A stretch of 63,099 bases of DNA, counting the filler, from Basidiobolus ranarum (taxonomy: Eukaryota), in the NCBI GenBank assembly GCA_040143965.1. It is 15 parts of 15 records of this genome, joined end to end, with 100 filler letters (N's around TTAATTAATTAA, not from the genome) between each part and the next. Parts side by side here need not be neighbours in the genome. Positions count along the whole stretch, not along the records: positions 54,807 to 58,904 come from JASJQH010002117.1; 14 more parts are not named here. One strand, given 5' to 3'. A program made the translations under genes and the position numbers. Below are positions 4,128 to 59,074 of this stretch, piece by piece (the stretch's first letter is position 1; every line of letters starts with the position of its first letter). The notes below the pieces were generated by a model. It was given only the letters and a program-made list of their open reading frames with translations, did not search any database and was not told the DNA's origin.

Positions 4128-4227
4128 NNNNNNNNNNNNNNNNNNNNNNNNNNNNNNNNNNNNNNNNNNNNTTAATTAATTAANNNNNNNNNNNNNNNNN
4201 NNNNNNNNNNNNNNNNNNNNNNNNNNN
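4128..4227. other. Artificial contig linker (first of 14 identical ones)
   Basis: 44 N + TTAATTAATTAA (stops in all six frames) + 44 N. The others start at 8354, 12578, 16799, 21020, 25239, 29457, 33674, 37889, 42099, 46304, 50507, 54707 and 58905. Contig lengths never increase along the window. Confidence 0.98.
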
Positions 4228-8353: not shown

Positions 8354-8539
8354 NNNNNNNNNNNNNNNNNNNNNNNNNNNNNNNNNNNNNNNNNNNNTTA
8401 ATTAATTAANNNNNNNNNNNNNNNNNNNNNNNNNNNNNNNNNNNNNNNNNNNNCCACTTGGATGGTCAAATTGTTACTTAAATCATATTTACACCACAGA
8501 ATCAAAGCTATTGCCACTCAGATGCATACCCATTGAAGA

Positions 8540-8753
8540 TATGTTAAGAAAGGTCCCAGGAACATGTGTGTAGAGTTTGGGGCTTCTAGCACAAGTTTGA
8601 AAAATCTATAGATCTGAGAATTCCTAAGTAGGTAAAAATTTTCCAAGTAATTTCCATTTGAGAATAATGGATAATATCTTAGTGAAATATAATATAACTA
8701 AGTACTAAGCTATATACAAATATATAGGTGCTTAGGCAATGCTAATTTCAACA
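8540..8753 (-). mobile_element. Partial Copia LTR-A
   Basis: Reverse-complement match to LTR-A with terminus TTTCAACA at 8753. Confidence 0.8.
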
Positions 8754-9077
8754 GGAAGACACTTACCAAACATGTTCTGCTGCCAACAAGATGTTTCTCA
8801 GAAGACAATTCTTTGACTTAAAGATGAGGCCATGAGAAGACATTGAATCACTAATGAATAGGGTCACTATTTTAGTGGATGAAATGAAATGCATTGGAGT
8901 ACCTACTACTGATCAAGATATCATAGTTACAGTCCTGACTAGCCTTCCACACAAGTTTCAGAGCCTACTAATGGATCTAGAATCAAGAACTGAAAATTTG
9001 ACCTTAAGTTATATATTTGGCAGACTCCAGGATGAAGATTTATGCAAATTAGGATCCAACTAAAAGAATGAAGAAAA
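8754..9077 (+). mobile_element. Copia gag fragment
   Basis: TDQDIIVTVLTSLPHKFQSL motif, homologous to the gag at 57700-58000. Confidence 0.8.
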
Positions 9078-12000
9078 TTTTAGAGTTTTGGGAGCCTGTT
9101 GGAAGTGGTTTGGAGAATTAGAGAAATTGGTAATTTTCACTTGTAGATTTATTAAGTAGAAAGTTGATGTTTATGATTTTGTCAAGATGTAAGCAAGCTA
9201 ACATGCAGAATGTGTTAAGAAAAGTCTCAGGGACATGAGTGCATAGTTTTGGGCTTCTTGCACAAGTTTGAAAAATCTTTATATCTGAGAACTTCTAAGT
9301 TGGTAAGAATATTCAAAGTAAATACCAATTGAGAATAAAAGATAATATCTTAATGAAATATTAGATAACTAAGTACTAAGCTATATGTAACTATATAGAT
9401 GCTTAGGAAATGCTAATGTCAACACTCTCTCTCAACTAAATAGTCATATAAATTAATCCCAAGGAGGGTCTAAATTTATCAAATTTCTGTCTAGCTAATG
9501 GTTTGATTAATATATCAGCAATCATAACTTCAGTAGAACAATAAGTTAAGTCAATAAACTTATTCTCTATAGTCTCTCCTATGAAGTGATATCTCATATC
9601 CATTTGTTCGCTTCTATTAAGAATCATGGGATTTTAGCTAATTTGATATAACATTGATTATCCAGAAATCTTGTAGTTGGTGAATTTGAGGATAATCTAA
9701 GTCTGTTAAGAGTTTGGCAACCATATTGCTTCTTTTGTAGCTTCACAGGCAACCAGGTATTCTGCTTCTGATGTTGACAGCATACAGTAGGTGTTTTCTT
9801 TGAATTCCAAGAAATAGCTGCATTATAGCAAAGAAATCAATTTCCTGTCATAGATCTCTTATCTTCAATATCTCTTTCCCAATTTGCATGTGAATATCCC
9901 ATCAGATCAGACTTTGATCTGGAACATATGTATTGTAAGCACAGATCCACAGTACCTTTAAATATCTGAAAACCCACTTAACTGCTACGATTTGATCAGT
10001 TCAACAGTTTTCAAGATATTGGCACATAACTCCCACAGACTATACAATATCTGGACATGTTCCAGCCATGATATACACTAAACTACCAGCCATAGACTGA
10101 TAAGGAAATATTTGGCTTTCATTTGAAAACAAGAATATCTGATTTGAGCCATTTTTGGTCAAATTGGGATTTGTCTCCATTGGGATAGATACTGGATTAT
10201 ATTCTTCCATTTTAAGCTTCTTTGGTATATCTAAAATGTACTTAGACTGGTTTAAAGTTATTATTTGGTAGTTCTTGTTACTGTATTTGGAACCCTGTTG
10301 GAAGTGGTTTGGAGAATTAGAGGAATTGGTGGTTTTCACTCATTGATTTATTGAGTAGGAAGTTGACATTTATAGTTTTGTCAAGATGTAAACAAACTAA
10401 TGTGTAGAATGTGTTAACAAAGCTCCCAGGAACATGTGTGCAAAGTTTGGAGCTTTGAGCACAAGTTTGAAAAATTAATATATCTGAGAACTTCTAAGTT
10501 GGTAAGAATATTCAAAGTAAATACCAATTGAGAATAAAAGATAATATCTTAATGAAATATTAGATAACTAAGTACTAAGCTATATGTAACTATATAGATG
10601 CTTAGGAAATGCTAATGTCAACACTCTCTCTCAACTAAATAGTCATATAAATTAATCCCAAGGAGGGTCTAAATTTATCAAATTTCTGTCTAGCTAATGG
10701 TTTGATTAATATATCAGCAATCATGACTTCAGTAGAACAATAAGTTAAGTCAATAAACTTATTCTCTATAGTCTCTCCTATGAAGTGATATCTCATATCC
10801 ATTTGTTCGCTTCTATTAAGAATCATGGGATTTTAGCTAATTTGATATAACATTGATTATCCAGAAATCTTGTAGTTGGTGAATTTGAGGATAATCTAAG
10901 TCTGTTAAGAGTTTGGCAACCATATTGCTTCTTTTGTAGCTTCACAGGCAACCAGGTATTCTGCTTCTGATGTTGACAGCATACAGTAGGTGTTTTCTTT
11001 GAATTCCAAGAAATAGCTGCATTATAGCAAAGAAATCAATTTCCTGTCATAGATCTCTTATCTTCAATATCTCTTTCCCAATTTGCATGTGAATATCCCA
11101 TCAGATCAGACTTTGATCTGGAACATATGTATTGTAAGCACAGATCCACAGTACCTTTAAATATCTGAAAACCCACTTAACTGCTACGATTTGATCAGTT
11201 CAACAGTTTTCAAGATATTGGCACATAACTCCCACAGACTATACAATATCTGGACATGTTCCAGCCATGATATACACTAAACTACCAGCCATAGACTGAT
11301 AAGGAAATATTTGGCTTTCATTTGAAAACAAGAATATCTGATTTGAGCCATTTTTGGTCAAATTGGGATTTGTCTCCATTGGGATAGATACTGGATTATA
11401 TTCTTCCATTTTAAGCTTCTTTGGTATATCTAAAATGTACTTAGACTGGTTTAAAGTTATTATTTGGTAGTTCTTGTTACTGTATTTGGAACCCTGTTGG
11501 AAGTGGTTTGGAGAATTAGAGGAATTGGTGGTTTTCACTCATTGATTTATTGAGTAGGAAGTTGACATTTATAGTTTTGTCAAGATGTAAACAAACTAAT
11601 GTGTAGAATGTGTTAACAAAGCTCCCAGGAACATGTGTGCAAAGTTTGGAGCTTTGAGCACAAGTTTGAAAAATTAATATATCTGAGAACTTCTAAGTTG
11701 GTAAAAATATTCTAAGTAAATTCTGATTCAGAATAATTGATAATATCTTGGTGAATCACAAGATAGCTAAGTACTAAATTATATATGACTATATAGATGC
11801 TTAGGCAGTGTTAATTTCAACACTCTCCCTCAACTAAATAGTCATACAAACTAATCCTAACAAAGGTCTAAATTTCTCATATTTCTCTCTAGCCAATGGT
11901 TTGTTTAATATATCAGCAATCATATCTTCCATAGAGCAGTAATTTAAGTCAATAAACCTATTCTCTATAGTATCTCTAACAAAGTGATGCTTAATATCTA

Positions 12001-12577
12001 TATGTTTGCTTCTATTATGAAACATGGCATTTTTAGCTAATTTGATACAACTTTGATAATCTTAAAATATTGTTGTTGGTGAGTTTTGAGAATAACTCAG
12101 AACTCTTAAGAGTTTTCTTAGCCATATTGCTTCTTTTGTTGCTTCACAGGCAGCCATGTATTCAGCTTTTGATGTTGAAAGTGCCACAGTAGGTTGTTTC
12201 TTTGAATTCCAAGAAATAGCTCCATTACAGCAAAGAAGTAAGTATCCTGTTGTAAATCTCCTGTCTTCAATATCTCTTCCCCAATTTGCATCTGAATATC
12301 CCATCAGATCAAAATTTGATCCAGAATATGTGTATTTTAAGCATAGATCCAGAGTACCTTTCAAATAGCTGAAAATCCACTTAACTGCTATGATTTGATC
12401 AGATCCATAATTTTGTAGATATTAGCATATAACTCCCACAGAATATGCCAAATCTGGCCATGTTCCAACCATGATATACATCAAACTACCAACCATAGAT
12501 TGATAAGGAAATTTCTGGCTTTCATTTGAATCCAAAAACATCTGATTTGAGCCATTTTTGGTCAAGTTAAGATTTGT
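9078..12577 (-). mobile_element. Nested/tandem Copia-A: three LTRs (about 9078-9424, 10276-10623, 11475-11822), each preceded by RT-RNaseH and a PPT
   Basis: RNaseH motifs GYSDANWG, KQPTVALST.KAEY, RSKHIDIKHHF and MIADIL.KPL. PPT AGTTGAG(G/A)GAGAG before TGTTGA. The ORF pairs are offset by exactly 1199 bp. Confidence 0.92.
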
Positions 12578-12677: not shown

Positions 12678-14513
12678 TCTGAGGACTTGCTGCTAGATGT
12701 TGACCTTGGTTATTCTAGTCCCAAGGGTAGTATATTAGATGTTGAAAAAGATGACAACAGTTTTGTGACAGACTCTTTGTTATTGGCAAACATTAGTTTC
12801 CTCATAACACTTACTGTAAAGGAAGCAGCTTTGATTATTGAGGAGTGGAGAGTTCAATCCAATCTTAGCAACCAGGTGTTTATTGGTTTTCTTACACTCT
12901 ACCACATTTGATTGGCAACAGTTGCTTGCCACAGACCTGGTACAAGTGGAAAACACTTGTCATTTGTATGACTTAAAATCCTTCAGTAATTAAAGTACCT
13001 TCATGTCAAAATGGTTGTTTGGCTCTCACTGGTGATCTGAAAAGCCTGAAGTCATGTACTGTTTGCACACAATTGGCACTCACTGAATCAGGTAAATATT
13101 TTTCATATAAGGCTTACATACCATTGCTTCCCCATCTTAAAATTTTGATGAAATCACCCAAACATAGAGCATTGATGCAACACCAAATTACTCACTGGGA
13201 AGCTGATGGTATTACCAATATACTTGATGGATATCACTACCAGAATCTGAAAAATCAAGGTTTCTTTGAGAACACATATGATCATGCATTTGCATTGGCT
13301 CTGAATGGTTTCTCACTAAACAAATATACGGTTGGAAAGGCTTGCTGGCCAATAATTTTAATCAACTTAAATCTTCCTTCTTCTGAACAGTATAAGAGTC
13401 AAAATATTTTGATACCATCAATCATATCTGGACCTCAATCAGCAGTGCTTATAGATAGCTTCTTGGAGCCTTTGAATGTGGAATTTGAACGGTTATCTAA
13501 TGGGATTCAGATGGGTGAATATTTTGTTAAAGCCCATATTTTTGTATGCATTGGTGATATTCCTGCATCACTAAACTTGGAGGTTTTGTGGGCACAGTGC
13601 ACGATCTTGCTGTATATTTTGTCAAATCAAAGGAGTTTTCTCAAACAGGTGTACACATTACTATTATCCAAATACAACACTAAACTTCATGATTTCAGCA
13701 TTGAGAGCCCAGTCAGATTGCAATATGATCACTGATATCATATTCACCAAATAGTCAGTTTAACATCAAACTTGGTATTAGCTGTAAGCCTAAAATTATA
13801 TTGCTAAAGGGGATTAGCTAGAGCCAGAGCTTTCTATTAGATACTACACACTTACTCTTCAACAACATTCCACTACTGCTTACTCAGCTCTATAGTGAAA
13901 AATTCAATATGAATGAGCCATTCAAGATAGGATCAAAGTTTCAAACAATTAGGCAAATGCTTGAAAACATCAAGCTACCATCATATTTTACCAGGTTGCA
14001 CATCAATATCGACTTATCTAGGCATGTATTTGAATGCAAAGACCGGAAGTATTGCATTTACATATATTTTAAGTGGAAATTTGAAAAGATTTCTGCATGA
14101 TAAGCATTCAAAATATTGGGAGTTGTTTGTTAATATTGTATATATTTTCTTGTGGCATCAACTCACATTGGAGAGATCTCAGTAAGATATAGCAACTGTG
14201 CAAAGATTTTGTAATTGGATATGAAAAACTTTATAACAGGTTTAAACAAGATAGATTGAATCTATGCCAGTACTCAATACATTCCCTGCTGCATCTTTCA
14301 CAATGCGTAGAGATTACAGGCCCTTGTTATACCTTCTGGGAGTTCCCAATGGAGTGCACCTGTGATGAAATGATGCTTGGTGAGAAATTGTTTGTATTAT
14401 CATATGCTAATCTGATTAACAATGTATTAGCAAAATCAGTGATGGGTGTATTGCAATGGGTTAAGGAGACTCCAGAGTATATTAACCTGCCAACAAAGGG
14501 CTCTTCTCAATGT
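12678..14513 (+). mobile_element. CACTA/EnSpm-superfamily transposase pseudogene (Transposase_21 + DUF4218-like)
   Basis: Motifs NGFS..WPIILINLNLP..NILIPSIISGP..DSFLEPL..E..L.NG..GDIPA and HSLLHLSQ..GP..FWEFPME, with frameshifts and stops. Confidence 0.85.
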
Positions 14514-26617: not shown

Positions 26618-28473
26618 ATGCTGCAACACAAACAATTAAAAAAGTCCTGCCATTATTGTCACAAATTCTTGCACTATGAAAGCCAGATTCTTCATAGAAA
26701 AGATAATCACAAGCACAGTCATTGTACAAAGCCACTACTGCACAAAGCCTGGTGAATATCAACAGTGAGAAGTGCACAAATTCAATTATAGATTTGCCCA
26801 CCTTGTCCACTGGTGGTACTTTACCACAAAGTTTTGGTAACACTACTGAAAGTCAATATATATAGCAAAGCCACCACACCTATTTGACCAGATTTATGTA
26901 GGTAGAAATGCTACTTTGGTGGAACCAGTAAGTCCAGACAACTTTGAAGACATGCCGCTAGATGTTGCCCATGGTTATTACAGTACTGTTGGGAGTATAT
27001 CAGAAGATGTAGAATAAGATGATGGTTTTGTTACAGATTTTTTGCCACCAGCAAGCATCTGGCCACTCATAACACTTACAGTAAAGGGAGTAACTATGAT
27101 TATTGAGGAGTGGAGAGTTCAATCCAATCATAGCAACCAGGTGTTTACTAGTATCTGTATGGTACAACAGCCATAATATTTTGATACTATCCTTCATATC
27201 TTTGCCTACATCACCAGTGCTTATAGATAGCTTCTTGGAGCCTTTGATTGAAGAATTTCAATGTTTATTTAATGGGGTTTAGATGTGTAATTATTTTTCA
27301 AGGTCAATAACATTGTACGTAATAGTGACACTTCAATCATCAGTAACCTTGGAGGTTTTTTGGGTGTAGTATATGACCTTGCATTTAATTCTTTCATATC
27401 AATCAAGTTTATTTTACCAGGCATATGCATTGCTACTGTTCAAACACATCACAAAGCTGCATGATCTTATCATCAGAGCCTTGTCACCTTTCAACTTGCT
27501 CACTGATATCAACCTGCCAAATAGTCAGTTTAACATCAAACTTGGTACTAGCCATATGTTTTAGATTATATTGCTAAAGGGGATCAACTGGAGCCAGGGC
27601 TTTCCACTAAGCACTTTTCAATTACTTCTCAACAACTTTCTAATACCACTTGCTTGGCTGTTCAGTGGTAAATTCAGTATGTATGGGCCATTTGAGATAG
27701 AATCAAAGTTTGAATCAATTGCAAATATGCTTGAAAATATCAAGATACCGTCATATTTTACCCAGACTCCCATCATTATCCACTCATCTAGGCATTTATT
27801 CAACTGCACAGATTGGAACTGTCAGATCAGTATATATTTAAGTGGAATCTTGATACAATTTCTGCCTGGTAAGTTGTGGCAACATTGGGAGTTGTTTGTG
27901 TATATGGTTAAGATATGCTTGCAGCATCAACTCATGCTGGCAGATCTTGGGCAGAAACAGCAACTGTGCCAATATTTTGTAATTGGATATGAAAAACTAT
28001 ATGATAGGCTTGGAGAAGATTGACTAAATCTATGCTAGTATTCAATACATTCCCCGCTGCATCTTTCACAATGCTCAGAGATTACAGACCCTTGTTATAT
28101 ATTATGGGAGTCCCAAATGGAGTGCACCTGTGGTGCTATAGTGCTCATTTTGAAATTGTCAGTATTATCATATGCTAATCTGATTAACAATATATCTGCA
28201 AAACCAGTAATAGATGTAATGCAATGGTTTAAGGAGACTTCAGATTTCCTTGACCTTCCAACAAAGGGATGTTTTCAATGTGCTCATAGGTTTTTTCTTT
28301 GTTAGAGCATAATTACAGCAACCAAACTCAATTCATGGACTCAGAGTAAGTGCCTCTATTTTTGGACTAATTTAGTTGGGTGATTAGCTAATGGTATTTT
28401 TAGAAAAGCTGCCAGACAGACTTATCGGTGAGATAGATTGAGATATGCACTATCATTGTTTTAGCTTTGAGGC
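26618..28473 (+). mobile_element. CACTA transposase pseudogene with internal deletion
   Basis: 26940-27150 matches 12678-12890 and 27217-28473 matches the core and 3' region. The start at 26618 is tentative (MLQHKQLKKSCHYCHKF). Confidence 0.8.
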
Positions 28474-34338: not shown

Positions 34339-35127
34339 ATGGCTCATACACTCCAATACCTACCAGAAATCAGCTAGTCAATTTGTTTTGTTAGTACACA
34401 AACTATTGTCCAATAAGATTTATGTGCACTGATAATGGTAGCAAAAGTGGGAGAAGCTTTAATACCAGGCTACAAGTAAGTGAGAATTCTCTAGCTTCAG
34501 TGATGAATGATATTGAGAGATGCTTAGGACAAAAGATTTGGAGACTCTAATTTCCTTCCATTTCCTGGAGTATTTCCCAATAGAGTTCATATCAGAATTA
34601 TTCTTGATACATTACTGGTCAGTATTAACAGGCATAGAAGCAACCAAAAGTTTTTCTATTCTGGCAAGTACAAAGCCCACTGTGTAAAGTTCCAGTCTTT
34701 GACAGATTTGGAAAGAAATATCATTTGGTTTTGTGGGTCTCATCCAGGGAAAAACCATGATAAAAGGCTTTGGGTTGAGAGGCATGCACCATTTGTAAGA
34801 TATGAGAAGACTATGGCTGATGTGGCATATGTTGGGGAAGAATATAACAGGCTAGGATATGTCACAGCTAACATGAGGCCCAGAGGAGGGATATTCACAG
34901 AGAGGCAAAAGCTTTATAATAACATTTTTTCCCATTTTAGAGCAAGAGTAGAACATAGCTGTGGTTTTCTAAAGAAATTTAATATTGTAGCAGGTAAGTA
35001 TAGAGAAAAAACATTTTGTGGGCCTCAATCAACATTACTCAAGGTAGTCAAAATCTTGATTAATTCTCATAACATTCATACTCAAAGATATCCATTGAGA
35101 GCTCTAGACTTAAGACACTATGAATAA
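34339..35127 (+). mobile_element. IS5/PIF-Harbinger (ISL2EU-like) DDE transposase pseudogene
   Basis: FYSGKYKAHCVKFQ, PGKNHDKRLW, MADVAYVG and YNNIFSHFRARVEH. The 5' boundary is approximate. Confidence 0.8.
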
Positions 35128-35320: not shown

Positions 35321-37718
35321 TTGGCTTACATACCATTGATTTCCCATCTTAAAGATTTGATGAAATCATCTAAACATAGATCATTGTTCAAATACCAAAG
35401 TATTCATAATAAATCTGATGGATATCAATGCTGGAATCTGAAAAGTCAAGGTTTCTTTGAGAACATGTATGATCATGCATTAGCATTGGCTCTGGATGGT
35501 TTCTCACTAAACAAATATACCATTGTAAAGGCTTACTGGCCAATAATTTTAGTTAACTTAAACATTCCTCTTTTTAAATGATACAAGAGCCATAATATTT
35601 TGATACTATCCATCATATCTGGACCTAAATCACCAATACTTATAGATATCATCTTTGAGCCTTTGATTGCAGAATTTCAATGGTTATCTAATGGGATTCA
35701 GAAGAGTGAATATTTTACTAAACCTTGATAAAAGTGTTTAGGACACTTGAAAGTTTTTAGACAGGATATGTATTTGTGAATAGACACTTAAGTTTTATTG
35801 AATTGAATATGTCCTATTTATGGTTTACATTGAAATAGAACTATTGGGCATGCTTAGATCATAAAAAACATGCCTGTTAAGCATGGGTCAAAGTTTGAAG
35901 TGATTTGGAGAGGTTTTAAGAAAATGTTTAAAATTAGTGAAAGTGATTTAATTGAGATATCTATCAATTAGAGCAATAAACACACATTTTTCAGTGACAA
36001 AATTGAGTGCTAAATAATCAGAACATGAATAAACTAACCACTAAATATGAGTTGCTATTTTCCTAATTTCAACAAAGCTAATATAATTGTATGTATTGCA
36101 AACACTCCTGCCATCAGTAAACTATGAAGTTTTTGTGGGCACAATGCACTATCTTGCTGTATACCTTGTCAGATAAATGGAGTCTACTCTATCAGGCATA
36201 CACAATACTAATATTCAAATACAAAACTAAACTCTATGATTTTACCTTCAAGTGCCTGGTGAAATTTAATATGGTCACTGCTATCAATAGATCAAATACT
36301 CAGTCTAATTACAAACTTGATATTAGCCTAGAGCATAAGATTGTATTGATAAAGGGGATCAGCTGGAGCCAGAGCTTCCCATTAGACACTCTGCACTTAC
36401 TATTTGACAACATTCCAATACTACTTACTCAGCTATATAGTGGAAAATTCAATATGAATGCTCCATTCAAGATAGCCTCAAAGTTTGAATTAATTGGGAA
36501 ACGCTTGAAAACATCAAGATACCTTCATATTTTACCAGGACTCCTTCAATATCCACTCATCTTGGTGTTTATTCAAGTTCCAAGACTGGAAGCTTTGAAT
36601 TTGTATAAATTCAAGTAGAATCTTGAAAAGATTTCTACCTGCTAAGTATTGGCTACATTAGGAGCTGTGTGTGGATGTTGCTAATATATTCTTATGGCAG
36701 CAACTCACATTGGCAGATCTCAGGAGTTCCCAATGCAGCACACCTGCAGTGAAATGATGCTCTAACTGAAATTGTCAGTATTAACATATGCTAATATGAT
36801 TAACCATGTATCAGCAAAATCAGCAATGGATGTAACAAATTAGGTTTTGGAGACTCCAGAGTATACTAACCTTCCAACAAAGGGCTCTTTTCAATGGGCT
36901 CAAGGGTTTTTGCATTGTTTGATTGCAAAAACTGTGACAAAACCCAATCCACAGACACAGAGTCAGTACCTCTATAATTTGGACTAATTGCTTTGTTTGA
37001 TAATCTGATGGTATTTCTAGGAAAGCTGAAAGACAGACTTCTTGGTGAGACAGATCAAAATACAAAGTATTATTGCTTTAGCCATGCATTAATCAATTCA
37101 AGCCATGACATATCTACTTGTAGCAGGACATTTCTTGACTGCAAGTGGGGAATATTTTGACTGAATTCTTTATAGAAATTTGCTAAAATCCAAGAGCCTA
37201 TTCTCATTGTGAATGGTAACAACAGTCCGCTATATGTGAAGTGTCAGTGCTATTTGAAATTCAGATGTTGAGCAATTGTTCCACCATTAGTTTGCTGGTA
37301 AAGCAAATTGATGTTGTTGAGTTATGTCTAATCACTCAAATATGGGCATATGTAGAGACTAAACACAACAAGATTCTTGTATTTTTTGATTCTTGTTATG
37401 GCTGGAATACAAAGCCTAAAATATCTAAATAAAGACATGCATATTAATTTGAATTCTTATAGCAGTAAAACCAGTAATTTGCCATTCAAAAATTATATTT
37501 TTGCAAAAATTGCCAGATATTGAATAACTCATGCCAAACTTGAGGATCAATATTTTAACATGTATGAATACCATCAAAATGCCATCAAGAAACTGCCATC
37601 ACACCATCCAAATCCCTGACAGAATGCAAGCCACCAGTATTGTAATGGTTCTCTGATGGTTTTGCTATTTCAGAGGATGGATCCAATTCAGATCCAATTG
37701 ATTTTATTTTTGTTAGGG
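35321..37718 (+). mobile_element. CACTA transposase pseudogene and right terminus
   Basis: Homologous to 13110-14513 and to the inverted copy. Ends TTTTTGTTAGGG at 37718. Confidence 0.88.
35726..36074 (-). mobile_element. Solo Copia LTR-B with 5-bp TSD
   Basis: TG..CA ends with flanks AACCT / AAGCT. Removing it restores the site TATTTTGTTAAAGCTAATAT seen uninterrupted in the copy at about 16057-16077. Confidence 0.9.
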
Positions 37719-37888
37719 TAAAAGCATATACTTTCTCTTCAGAAGCTCCAGTTAAATTGACTTGAACTGTTCCCATTCCAATGGTATCCAATGTGTAATC
37801 ATCTCCCATGAAAACCTTTCTATATGGGACCTCTTTGTCCTCCCTAAACCAGTGTTTTTCCTTTGTGAAATGTTGGGAGGCTCCAGAA
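37719..37888 (-). mobile_element. Copia-A protease fragment
   Basis: SGASQH..RKVFMGDDYTLDTIGMGTVQVNLTGASEEKVYAF. Confidence 0.8.
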
Positions 37889-44202: not shown

Positions 44203-46303
44203 ATGTGGAAGATACACATATTCCTCCTATGTACGCTGACCTTTTTGAAGTCGGCAATCGCAGATGTCAGTGTTTCTTACGCACCAACTGTTACTGTTAC
44301 CGTTTTCCCCACCAGTACGAGTAAGCCGCTGCCTAGTTGCAAAGACGCTGGGTGTCTTAACTTCGGCACATGCAACGATTTTGGTACTTGCTCTTGTATT
44401 CCAGGATTTAGCGACTATGACTGCGGAAGACTCGCCTGCAACTCCTCATCTACCTTAGAAACTAGTAGACAACTCGCTCCAGTGAATGCAGGATGTGAAT
44501 CGTGTGACAAAGGATTTACAGGGTTGAATTGCAATATCTGTACCACCAATGAAGGTTGCTCATCTCAACGGCAATTGTATAAGCCAATCACTACCGGTGA
44601 AACTATGGTCTGCAACACCAAGCCGGAGGTTGTACATCAGAGTTATTTACAATGTCCTGTAACCGGTAAAGTACATTATTCGCTACGTGCTATTCTAACT
44701 TTGCAATTCGTTACTAATCCACTTAATCCTCGCTAATAGACGCAATGTTAACCACTCTTTACCCAGGAGACGTTCAAATGGCATTTACACGGAATATCAC
44801 GGGTTATTCGTACGCTCAATTATTTTGGAATAATAAAGAGCAATTTTCGTGCCATATGACAGACTGCACTCAGAAACTCGTCGGTAAGTAGCAACTCAAG
44901 GATGTCTCCGGTCAAAAGTCTTACCCTTATATATAGGTAACGTTGAATGGGCGTGCAATGATATCAAATGCGAATGTATTCCAGGGGCGGCTTTTTGTGG
45001 AGGTCCTGGTGTGGTTGTAGATATTGGGTCTACAATAGAATCGATGTCTGGATACAACATATTGAGTTGTCATAACGATTCATGCACATGGAAAGGTACA
45101 AATAATTTACTTTGATATTTTGACAAGCAGGCATTAATTTCTGTTTTAATTTCCAGAAAATACCATCTCGGGAATATTCCCTAACGGTTTTCCTCTAAGT
45201 CATTGCAATTTTGGCGAATGTGCCTATCCTTCTGAATTAGATTTCACCATGGGCTCAGCTGTGGGTGTATTGATCCTTTATCGCATGCAAGAAAACACGT
45301 ACTGAACTCTATTTTCTTTCATTTAGACTGCTTATGCAATCAGTACTACTGTTTTGGCAGTGATCATTATCTTTGCATGTGTTATTGCCGCTTTGGTTGT
45401 TCTCTGTGGCTTTGCTAAGCGTACCCAATTGATCATGCGTCGTCGCGACGTTCCTCCACCATCCATGGGAGCAAATATCGAATGGAAAAATCTTACATAT
45501 GAAATTATGTTAAAAGGTAAAAAGTCCAAGAGTGTTACCATTCTCAGTGGAATCTCTGGATGTGCTCTGAAGGGTCAGGTATTGGCCATCATGGGACCAA
45601 GTGGTAAGAATAGCTATCGCATAGTTTTTCAACACAACCAGACCATTTAAGCCTCGTTGTTTTCTGATTAAATTTAGGTACGGGAAAAACCACTCTAGTG
45701 GATATATTAGGTGGGAAACAAAAGAGTGGTAAAGTTTGCGGTAGTCTTCTTGTGGATGGCAGGCCTATGTCTACAACGGAAATGCGTCAATTAGTTGGCT
45801 TTGTCGATCAAGAATTCGTACTGGCTCCTGAACTCACGGTCTTCGAGTCTTTGATGTTTTCCGCTTGCTTGAGACTTCCTGAGTGTATACCCTATGAAGA
45901 AAAACTTGCTAGAGTAGAGACTCTAATTCAGAAATTGGGTTTGGAGAAAGTCAGAGATAGAAGAGTAGGAAGTGTAGCTACTCGAAGCCTCTCTGGTGGT
46001 GAAAAACGGCGTGTTGCCATTGGTTTAGAGTTAGTTAGTGAGCCTGCAATCTTGATTTTGGATGAGCCACTTTCTGGGCTGGATTCATTCTCTGCCTCTA
46101 TGGTTATTGACATTTTGCATGAATTGGCCAAGGGACCCAACAAAACCACAGTAATTCTTACTATACATCAGCCTAGAAGTGATATTTTCCAAATGTTCGA
46201 CAGCACTCTGATTTTAGCCAAAGGCACCACTTTGTATTTCGGACCACCATCGAGAGCAGCTGGCCACTTTGCAATGGCGGATTTGCATTGACCAGCTAAT
46301 AAT
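44203..46303 (+). CDS. ADP1: ADP1-type ABCG half-transporter with N-terminal EGF-like Cys-rich domain (multi-exon, 3' truncated)
   Basis: Signal peptide, EGF repeats (CLNFGTC..CSCIPGFSDYDC), one TM helix, Walker A GPSG|TGKTT split by an intron, LSGGEKRRV, ILDEP and TIHQPRSDIF. Confidence 0.88.
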
Positions 46304-50124: not shown

Positions 50125-50462
50125 TGTTAAGGTACTTGATAGCCTGTTGGAAGTGGTTTGGAGAATTAGAGAACTTGGTGGTTCTGACTTATTGATTTAT
50201 TGAGTTGAAAGTTGACATTTATAATTTGGTCAAGATGTAAACAAACCAACATTTAAAATGTGTTTAGGAAAGTCCCAGAAATATGTGTACAAAGTTTAGG
50301 GCTTCTAGCACTTAGGGTTAGGGTTAGGAACTTCTAAGTTGGTAAAATATTTTAAGTAAATTCCAATTTGGAATAAAGGGTAATATCTTAGGGATATATA
50401 GGATAACTGAATACTAAGCTATATACTACTATATAGGTGCTTAGGCAATGCTACTTTCAACA
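50125..50462 (-). mobile_element. Copia LTR-A containing a short telomere-type insert
   Basis: TG..CA ends and a full-length match to LTR-A except 50312-50327. Confidence 0.9.
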
Positions 50463-57050: not shown

Positions 57051-58400
57051 AGAGGGCATATTATGTTGAAATTACCATTGCCTAAGCACCTATATAGTTA
57101 TATATAGCTTAGTATTTCTTTATCTTATATTTCACTATGATATTACCCATTATTTTCAATTGGAATTTACTTACCATATTGACAACAACTTAGAAGTTCT
57201 TAGATATATATATTTTTTGAAGAATTCCCAAACTTTGCACACAGGTTTCTGGGACCTTCCTTAACACTTCCTACACGTTAGTTTGTTTGCATCTTGACAA
57301 AAGTATAAATGTCAACTTTCAACTCAATAAACCTACAACTTAAAGCCACCAATTTCTCTAATTCTCCAAACCATTTCCTACAGGCTACCAAATACTTTAT
57401 CTGGCTATGAGCCCCAAGCTTGCACTCTCTGCAATGTCTACATCCCAAACTTCTGGAACTTCTTCCTTGTCTGAAAATTTGGGTGGAACCAGTTATCAAG
57501 TGGTGAAAGTGAAAATGTTGCTGCAAGAAAAAGGACTTTGGGATACCATTGTAAGAGAAGAAGACAAAGCAAAGCTCTCTGAGACCAAAGTTTTACTCCA
57601 GGCTAAAAAAAAACAAAATGCCTTGAACACAATATATCTTGATGTTAAAGACACATTGCAAATTCAATATTCAAGAGCCAAAGCTGCCAAGAAAGTATGG
57701 AGAGCCTTGAAAGATTCCTACCAAACGTGTTCTGCTGCCAATAAGATGTTTCTAAGAAGACAACTTTTTCAGTAAAAGACAAAGCCAGGAGAATGTATTA
57801 AATCACTGAGAAATCTGACACTATTTTAGTGGACGGAATGGAATTCATTGGAGGACTTACTACTGATCAGGACATCATAGTTATAGTCCTGAACAGCCTG
57901 CCACATAAATTTCAGAGCCCAGTGATGGATCTACAATCTAGAATTGATGATTTGTCTTTAAAATATGTATTTGGCAGATGTCTGGATAAAGATATATATG
58001 TGGCTTTTCAACACAAACAAGGAAGGACGTGCTTTAATAGGCAATGGGAAACATTTTTACAAAGATCAAAAATATTTTAAGCAGAAAAGTAACACATTCT
58101 ATCATTACTTTAAATGAACTGGCCTTTTATGCAAAGATTGCTCCCAAGAAATGCAATAGAAGAAGCACATGCTGAATCTGGAAATGTGATTATAACACAA
58201 GATCACTTGTTCATATTGGCTTTATCTATCACTATCAACAAGGACTCTGCAATATGGTTTATTGATTCTGGGGCCTCCCAACATTGCACAAATTGAAAAT
58301 ATTGGTCTTTTGATTATGAAAAAATCCCAATTAGAAACATTTTCAAGCAAGATGACCATGCACTGGATGTCATTGGAAAGGGAGCAATTCAATTCACTTC

Positions 58401-58682
58401 TATTGAAATTATTTAGGGAGAAATATTGGTCTGGCCAGGATTTGAACCTGGGATCTCCTTCACTCTAGCAAGGTGCTCTAACTACTGAGTTACCAGTCCT
58501 TGTATGCTATGCCTATATTGCTAGGGAACTTTAACCTAGTCTGTCTATGTATGGTACTTTGGCATTTCATCTATATAAGCAACTGATTGGCCTTAGACTT
58601 TGTGTTCAGATGCAGTCACCATACTCCATATTTTCCTCTTTGGGAGTTACTGCTTGTACCACAAGTCACCAGACTTTCAACA
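58401..58682. mobile_element. 282-bp LTR-like element containing a tRNA-like sequence, 5-bp TSD
   Basis: Ends TATTGAAA...TTTCAACA with flanks ACTTC / ACTTT. Excision restores the Copia frame GAIQFTLTGISEEKVYTFKDV. Confidence 0.88.
58427..58499 (-). ncRNA. tRNA-like sequence inside the element (copy 1)
   Basis: 73 nt, GGACTGGTAACTCAGTAGTTAGAGC..CCAGGTTCAAATCCTGGCCAGACCA. Confidence 0.75.
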
Positions 58683-58732
58683 ACTTTGACTGGTATATCT
58701 GAAGAGAAAGTATATACTTTTAAGGATGTAAC

Positions 58733-58904
58733 TATTGAAATTATTTAGGGAGAAATATTGATCTGGCCAGGATTTGAACCTGGGGCCTCCCTGACTCTAG
58801 CAAGGTGCTCTAACCACTGAGCTACCAGTCCTTGTATGCTATGCCTATATTGCTAGGGAACCTTAACCTAGTCTGTCAATGTATGGTACTTTGGCATTTC
58901 AGCT
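58733..58904. mobile_element. Second copy of the tRNA-bearing element (cut by contig end)
   Basis: Highly similar to 58401-58572 with the same TATTGAAA start. Confidence 0.88.
58759..58831 (-). ncRNA. tRNA-like cloverleaf inside the element (copy 2), anticodon position AGA
   Basis: GGACTGG TA GCTC AGTGGTTA GAGC A CCTTG CTAGAGT CAGGG AGGCC CCAGG TTCAAAT CCTGG CCAGATC A. A-box and B-box are both present. Confidence 0.8.
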
Positions 58905-59074
58905 NNNNNNNNNNNNNNNNNNNNNNNNNNNNNNNNNNNNNNNNNNNNTTAATTAATTAANNNNNNNNNNNNNNNNNNNNNNNNNNNNNNNNNNNNNNNN
59001 NNNNATCCCCCATACCCCCTGCTTTCTTTTTATACTGGGAGGACTACGTCCCCCAGACCCCCTCTTTTCATCCT

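Follow-up and report, generated by a model that had tools for sequence, protein, structure and literature searches.

LTR-like insertions with a tRNA-like sequence in a Copia element of Basidiobolus ranarum, probably LTRs of a retrotransposon of Helenus/TRIMp3 design

Introduction

A 282-bp unit with LTR-like ends and an internal tRNA-like sequence interrupts a Copia element of Basidiobolus ranarum (Zoopagomycota), and a second, incomplete copy lies a short distance downstream. This locus raises the question of what kind of mobile element the unit belongs to, how the two copies came to lie side by side, and what part the tRNA-like sequence plays, or once played, in the element. An earlier description made from the sequence alone (the sequence-only reading) had proposed a fungal LTR or TRIM family with a whole tRNA gene in antisense orientation. 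The unit was analysed here by comparison with related Copia copies, profile and covariance-model searches and comparison with published elements.

Sequence analysed

The analysed DNA, referred to as the window, is 63,099 bases long and is composed of 15 contigs (approximately 4.1-4.2 kb each, in descending order of length), not of one locus. The contigs are joined by N44-TTAATTAATTAA-N44 linkers (e.g. 4128-4227 and 58905-59004), and adjoining contigs are not genomic neighbours. On contig 11, an ABC-transporter ORF (45668-46291) shows 100% identity to a protein assigned by NCBI to B. ranarum and 92% to one of B. meristosporus, which identifies the host as B. ranarum and rules out a rust or another basidiomycete. 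Both copies of the unit make up the extreme right end of contig 14 (54807-58904, 4098 bp), and the features of this region are listed in Table 1. Elsewhere in the window, long open frames at 12977-13735, 27565-28023, 34528-35127 and 36121-36618 resemble DNA-transposon transposases, as judged by eye from their translations, with related sequences on three contigs.

Table 1. Coordinates of the two units, the host Copia element and the paralogous site, counted along the window
Feature	Position	Strand	Basis or remark
5' LTR of host Copia ("LTR-A"), ~336 bp, starts TGTTGAAATTA	57064..57399	+	10 other matches on 6 other contigs
PBS-like sequence TATGAGCCCC	57405..57414	+	adjoins 5' LTR; common to the 2 of 8 aligned LTR-A copies running into gag
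Host Copia gag, decayed	57407..58080	+	Pfam Retrotran_gag_2, E 3.3e-13 (57407-57775) and E 1.3e-4 (57802-58080)
Host Copia Pol, beta-barrel/protease-like region	58114..58400	+	Pfam Pol_BBD, E 2.6e-9, 37.7 bits
Target-site duplication, left copy, ACTTC, 5 bp	58396..58400	.	paralog has one AATTT here
Unit 1, complete LTR-like insertion, 282 bp	58401..58682	.	boundaries set by uninterrupted paralogous Copia site
tRNA-like sequence 1, 73 nt, anticodon AGA	58427..58499	-	ARAGORN; Rfam tRNA, 48.9 bits
TATATAA motif	58572-58578	+	other strand reads TATATAG; function putative
Spacer, 50 bp, host Copia Pol coding (TLTGISEEKVYTFKDV)	58683..58732	+	in frame; paralog alignment
Target-site duplication, right copy, ACTTT, 5 bp	58683..58687	.	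flanks unit 1
Unit 2, first 172 of 282 nt, cut by contig end	58733..58904	.	94.2% identical to unit 1
tRNA-like sequence 2, 73 nt, better preserved	58759..58831	-	ARAGORN; Rfam tRNA, 55.7 bits
Paralogous Copia copy with empty site	37719..37888	-	contig 9, another contig; aligns across the site uninterrupted

Host Copia element

The host Copia element could be followed from its 5' LTR through a decayed gag to the Pol region, where it is interrupted by unit 1 at position 47 of the 81 positions of the Pol_BBD profile. The Pol_BBD match covers profile positions 1-47 and was read with X at one in-frame TGA. The PBS-like sequence is complementary to ...GGGGCUCAUA, which would be the anticodon loop of an initiator tRNA-Met type. 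The LTR-A family ends in ...ACTTTAACA in its better-kept copies, and a polypurine tract, GAGAGAG, precedes LTR-A in the 3' copies.

Two further observations concern this family. Contig 3 (8454-12577) carries a head-to-tail LTR-A array of the order LTR-internal-LTR-internal, with a 1199-bp period and three full periods. The internal part measures about 860 bp, portions of two periods are 100% identical, and the inner border is without the TATGAGCCCC seen beside full Copia LTRs; the array could represent tandem copies of a small derivative that is non-autonomous. Within one LTR-A copy, a telomere-like CCTAACCCTAACCC is present (50315-50328, minus strand) at a place where other copies have unrelated sequence; the number of matches of this kind expected by chance is about 0.02.

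Insertion site and ends of the unit

Unit 1 is a DNA copy whose insertion, with a 5-bp target duplication, took place in a Copia element already resident in B. ranarum. The paralogous Copia copy on contig 9 matches the left flank over 134 nt (72%) and the spacer over 38 nt (84%) in one continuous stretch, and its translation spans the insertion point within Pol_BBD (profile positions 5-51 of 81, E 2.5e-10). The unit-bearing copy reads TTCACTTC-unit-ACTTTGACTGG and the paralog GTCAATTTAACTGG; the duplicated bases are exactly five. When the unit and one duplicated 5-mer are taken out, the Copia frame continues as ...GKGAIQF TLTGISEEKVYTFKDV. Since the paralogous copy is uninterrupted at this site, unit 1 represents a true insertion with a 5-bp duplication, the two flanks of which agree at four of five positions and differ by one mismatch. 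The duplication that had been proposed from the sequence alone was thus confirmed by the single AATTT of the paralog, and the claim that the spacer is in-frame Copia sequence was borne out by the paralog alignment together with the restored frame.

The unit begins with TATTGAAATTAT, and its terminal pair is TATTGAAATTA...ACTTTCAACA. Its inverted ends follow T[A/G]TTGAAA, with nine of the 12 terminal bases inverted-identical. The termini read TATTG...CAACA on the plus strand and TGTTG...CAATA on the minus strand; both copies depart from the canonical TG...CA at one end, as TA...CA on the plus or TG...TA on the minus strand. The length of 282 bp, the TATATAA motif and the short LTR-like inverted ends, all of which had been noted previously, are present as described.

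The ends of the unit also resemble those of the host LTR. Ten of its first 12 bases match LTR-A, and the 3' ends, ACTTTCAACA in the unit and ACTTTAACA in LTR-A, share ACTTT(C)AACA, a resemblance that exceeds the generic TG..CA. In the body of the unit, local alignment with the Copia LTR on both strands gave scores of 16-22, against 19 +/- 2.5 for shuffled sequences. As the bodies are no more alike than shuffles, the unit is not a derivative of LTR-A.

Searches for the unit beyond the window were negative within their scope. In metagenome contigs, a 26-nt pattern combining the end and the tRNA gave no matches, while a 21-nt anticodon/D-arm pattern gave two, both chance 21-mers without a tRNA or further similarity. 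A protein-database search with the internal 55-aa ORF of the unit, looking for ORFs called on other copies, returned no candidate.

The paralogous Copia copy on contig 9 (37585-37719, minus strand) stops matching 10 nt before the site of the unit 2 insertion. Beyond the end of the match, its open frame runs on into unrelated sequence starting with CCCTAAC. The Copia Pol_BBD region is thereby broken a second time within a few bases.

tRNA-like sequence

ARAGORN and Rfam each found exactly two tRNA matches in the 63-kb window, one in each copy of the unit, and ARAGORN calls both Ser(AGA). The covariance search, which had been suggested as a check on the sequence-only reading, confirmed the tRNA-like sequence in both copies with scores well over the Rfam gathering score of 29 (Table 1). 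Thermodynamic folding z-scores of -0.5 and -0.3 were uninformative, and the tRNA claim rests on the covariance-model scores. Sequence 1 begins 26 nt from the left end of unit 1, and on the tRNA strand the tRNA-like part occupies positions 184-256 of 282.

A 73-nt cloverleaf with A and B boxes had been described in the unit. This was borne out. Copy 2 has the A box TAGCTCAGTGG and the B box GGTTCAAATCC, and its minimum-energy fold is a cloverleaf. In copy 1, the B box GGTTCAAATCC and its GGTTC are kept and the A box is degraded (TAACT...TAG, with two box A substitutions).

The variable loop of the 73-nt body is 5 nt long, and the body is without a long variable arm. A long variable arm is typical of tRNA-Ser. 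A Ser(AGA) anticodon in a body without this arm therefore identifies the sequence as a pseudo-tRNA. No T4 terminator was found on the tRNA strand within the unit, an absence that is not significant (shuffle P 0.45), and the nearest run of four or more T on that strand lies 77 nt outside the unit. A genuine tRNA-Ser gene was ruled out by the short variable loop and by the lack of an adjoining oligo-T terminator. The earlier description as a whole tRNA gene had to be given up on the same features, namely the Ser(AGA) anticodon, the short-variable-arm body and the lack of T4 in the unit, and we infer that no working tRNA is encoded by the tRNA-like part.

Differences between the copies are concentrated in this part, with 7 of 73 positions affected against 3 of 99 in the remaining LTR. 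The tRNA-like part being the most diverged, no sign of constraint on it is seen in these copies. On the plus strand, a C of copy 2 mostly corresponds to a T in copy 1, at five sites, a pattern that suggests C-to-T decay of copy 1. With box A partly lost in copy 1 and a mismatch in the target-site duplication, both copies are presumably decaying relics.

The orientation of the tRNA-like part had been given as antisense. This is correct relative to the plus strand of the window and to the host Copia element; for the LTR's own direction, two indirect tests disagree weakly. Which end is U3 is not shown by a solo LTR, and the direction is therefore not given by unit 1 alone. The similarity of the ends to LTR-A (AAATTA at the 5' and ACTTT at the 3' end) weakly favours a plus-strand LTR, i.e. 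an antisense tRNA. A strand read by Pol III needs to be depleted in T runs. On the tRNA strand, no runs of T4 or longer and two of T3 or longer were counted, against nine runs of A3 or longer, and the composition-adjusted P values of 0.45 and 0.34 are not significant. An antisense tRNA would be a misfit with the TRIMp3 idea, in which the element is transcribed from the promoter of the tRNA.

Second copy of the unit

The claim that a second copy lies 50 bp downstream proved accurate: unit 2 starts at 58733, exactly 50 bp past unit 1 and in the same orientation. Both copies begin at the identical terminal base, TATTGAAATT, and differ at 10 of 172 positions, by seven transitions and three transversions. 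A single tiny TRIM composed of unit 1, spacer and unit 2 was considered as well and was rejected, as the spacer is Copia coding sequence and, in the paralog, runs on from the left flank without a break.

Two copies in the same orientation and only 50 bp apart, the second of them lying on the final 172 nt of its 4098-bp contig with its right flank unseen, could also be explained by a local tandem duplication of unit and spacer, or by misassembly where the contig ends in a repeat. This explanation is improbable. Copy 2 starts at the terminal base of copy 1, which is predicted by integration and not by a random duplication breakpoint, and for this reason a second integration is favoured over a local duplication. 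In addition, the differences between the copies show that they are not one copy onto which the contig folds back. The proposal of two independent insertions is thus supported by the shared terminal start base and by the Copia spacer.

Interpretation of the unit

Judged on its sequence features, the unit is probably the LTR of a non-autonomous retrotransposon of Helenus/TRIMp3 design, known here from one solo and one truncated copy, with unit 1 as a solo LTR and unit 2 as a solo or terminal LTR. A 5-bp duplication together with TGTTG-type ends is the signature of a Copia integrase. Such an integrase would have inserted the unit, and its likely source would be the abundant co-resident Copia family, the LTR ends of which are mimicked by the unit. 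The simplest reading is that the solo LTR would have been recognised by the integrase of the LTR-A Copia family or of a close relative. Recombination between two LTRs would then have excised the short internal part, with a single LTR remaining. The A and B boxes that are still present most likely act, or may have acted in the past, as an internal promoter for RNA polymerase III. An integrase-type insertion with a tRNA-like unit of Pol III type, as had been put forward from the sequence alone, is supported by the 5-bp duplication, the LTR-like ends and the Rfam scores.

All of the LTR evidence would fit equally well if the unit came from a full-size LTR retrotransposon, either autonomous or large and non-autonomous, with a chance tRNA-derived segment in its LTR, and not from a TRIM of Helenus type. 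Unit 2 could then be the terminal LTR of such an element, the long remainder of which would lie beyond the contig end, and tRNA-like segments do occur in "not a few" Repbase LTRs, the label Helenus being kept for elements of less than 1000 bp (PMC10886601). We nevertheless regard this explanation as unlikely: BLAST of the unit within the 63-kb window found the two copies only and no coding element bearing the unit as its LTR, and the tRNA-bearing fungal LTRs with 5-bp duplications described in the same paper belong to TRIMs. Far less credible still is a tRNA-derived SINE or a MITE. Like SINE2, the tRNA-derived SINEs, the unit does contain A and B boxes within a tRNA-like sequence, and its short inverted ends could recall a MITE. 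In SINE2, however, this sequence forms the head, whereas in the unit it is internal and near the 3' side, and the 183 nt upstream would be out of reach of transcription from an internal Pol III promoter in that position. The unit ends in ...AATTTCAATA, with no A-rich or simple-repeat tail and no tail of LINE type, and a fixed 5-bp duplication and LTR-like ends further separate the unit from SINE2. Inverted ends that match at 9 of 12 bases only are LTR-like rather than MITE-like. The earlier exclusion of a SINE is accordingly upheld by the position of the tRNA-like part, the absent tail and the LTR-like ends.

A more speculative possibility, which we consider doubtful, is a tRNA-LTR family that evolved independently in Basidiobolus, with the Pol III unit placed antisense in U3 as a landing pad that draws the Copia integrase, so that new copies arrive beside old ones. 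In this arrangement the tRNA-like unit could not drive the element's own RNA, since it would be antisense in U3, and two insertions in the same orientation 50 bp apart would follow from an integrase drawn to Pol III genes. In yeast, Ty1 integration is drawn to Pol III genes. With one such pair of copies, targeting to Pol III units cannot be shown.

Comparison with known systems

Returning to the Helenus/TRIMp3 reading, the closest published counterparts are the TRIMs with tRNA-derived sequence in their LTRs described as Helenus/TRIMp3 by Kojima (2024; PMC10886601). A Helenus element consists of two direct LTRs of up to 323 bp around a short internal region, which contains a PBS and a PPT, the whole being smaller than about 1.3 kb. 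Its LTRs carry the box motifs TRGCY and YGG (box A) and GGTTC (box B). The fungal members, which make 5-bp duplications and of which solo LTRs are often the sole survivors, comprise 113 families from Pucciniales (rusts) plus the three Agaricomycetes Agaricus, Coprinopsis and Amylostereum only, and rely on Copia elements with primer sites for tRNA-iMet's anticodon loop. The tRNA part has been proposed to derive from a SINE, and an origin in rust fungi about 130 million years ago has been suggested (PMC10886601). The idea that the unit belongs to an uncatalogued family could thus not be maintained as such, for the kind has already been published, though not from this fungal lineage.

Several properties of the unit agree with this description (PMC10886601). 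Its length of 282 bp is inside the published size range, copy 2 has all three boxes (TAGCT, TGG and GGTTC), and the duplication, ACTTC/ACTTT against the single AATTT, has the 5 bp of the fungal members. The PBS-like site of the host Copia would use the same primer type, the tRNA-iMet anticodon loop, as the Copia elements linked to Helenus. The combination of a 73-nt body of class I with the anticodon AGA (Ser) is likewise matched, as some Helenus were scored as tRNA-Ser-AGA and the anticodon and the body disagree in most of them. Predictions of tRNA-Thr-AGT, Ser-AGA, Ala-AGC and others in rust genomes were found to be mostly Helenus and unlikely to be working tRNAs; tRNA-bearing LTRs inflate tRNA gene counts, as shown for rusts (PMC10886601). 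Because both tRNA calls in the present window are of the LTR-borne kind, such LTRs should be masked in the tRNA annotation of Basidiobolus.

The unit also differs from the published Helenus. Its host, as a member of Zoopagomycota, is outside the host range given by Kojima (PMC10886601), and membership of Helenus therefore rests on design and not on sequence homology. In a literature search that covered the main text of Kojima's paper, no Helenus-type element reported for Basidiobolus or Zoopagomycota was found; as the screen in that paper followed relatives of known hosts, the absence of Basidiobolus from its list is not a tested absence. The unit is known from one solo and one truncated copy, whereas paired LTRs, PBS and PPT characterise Helenus, and its tRNA-like part, which may be antisense to the LTR, is separated from one LTR end by 26 nt. 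If paired copies were confirmed, Helenus/TRIMp3 would no longer be confined to Basidiomycota among fungi, and its known range would include a phylum that diverged early. Such an extension would imply either repeated independent capture of tRNA or SINE sequence by LTRs, or an origin older than about 130 million years.

The plant TRIM Cassandra (PMC10886601) is alike in having a small-RNA gene of Pol III type inside the LTR of a small element. In Cassandra, however, the LTR carries 5S rRNA with conserved Pol III terminators, whereas the segment of the present unit is tRNA-like and without a terminator, and an Rfam scan of the whole window gave no 5S at the gathering score or at E<=1. Measured against Kojima (PMC10886601), the kind of element found here was published in 2024, its host lineage is new and the orientation of its tRNA-like part is possibly new.
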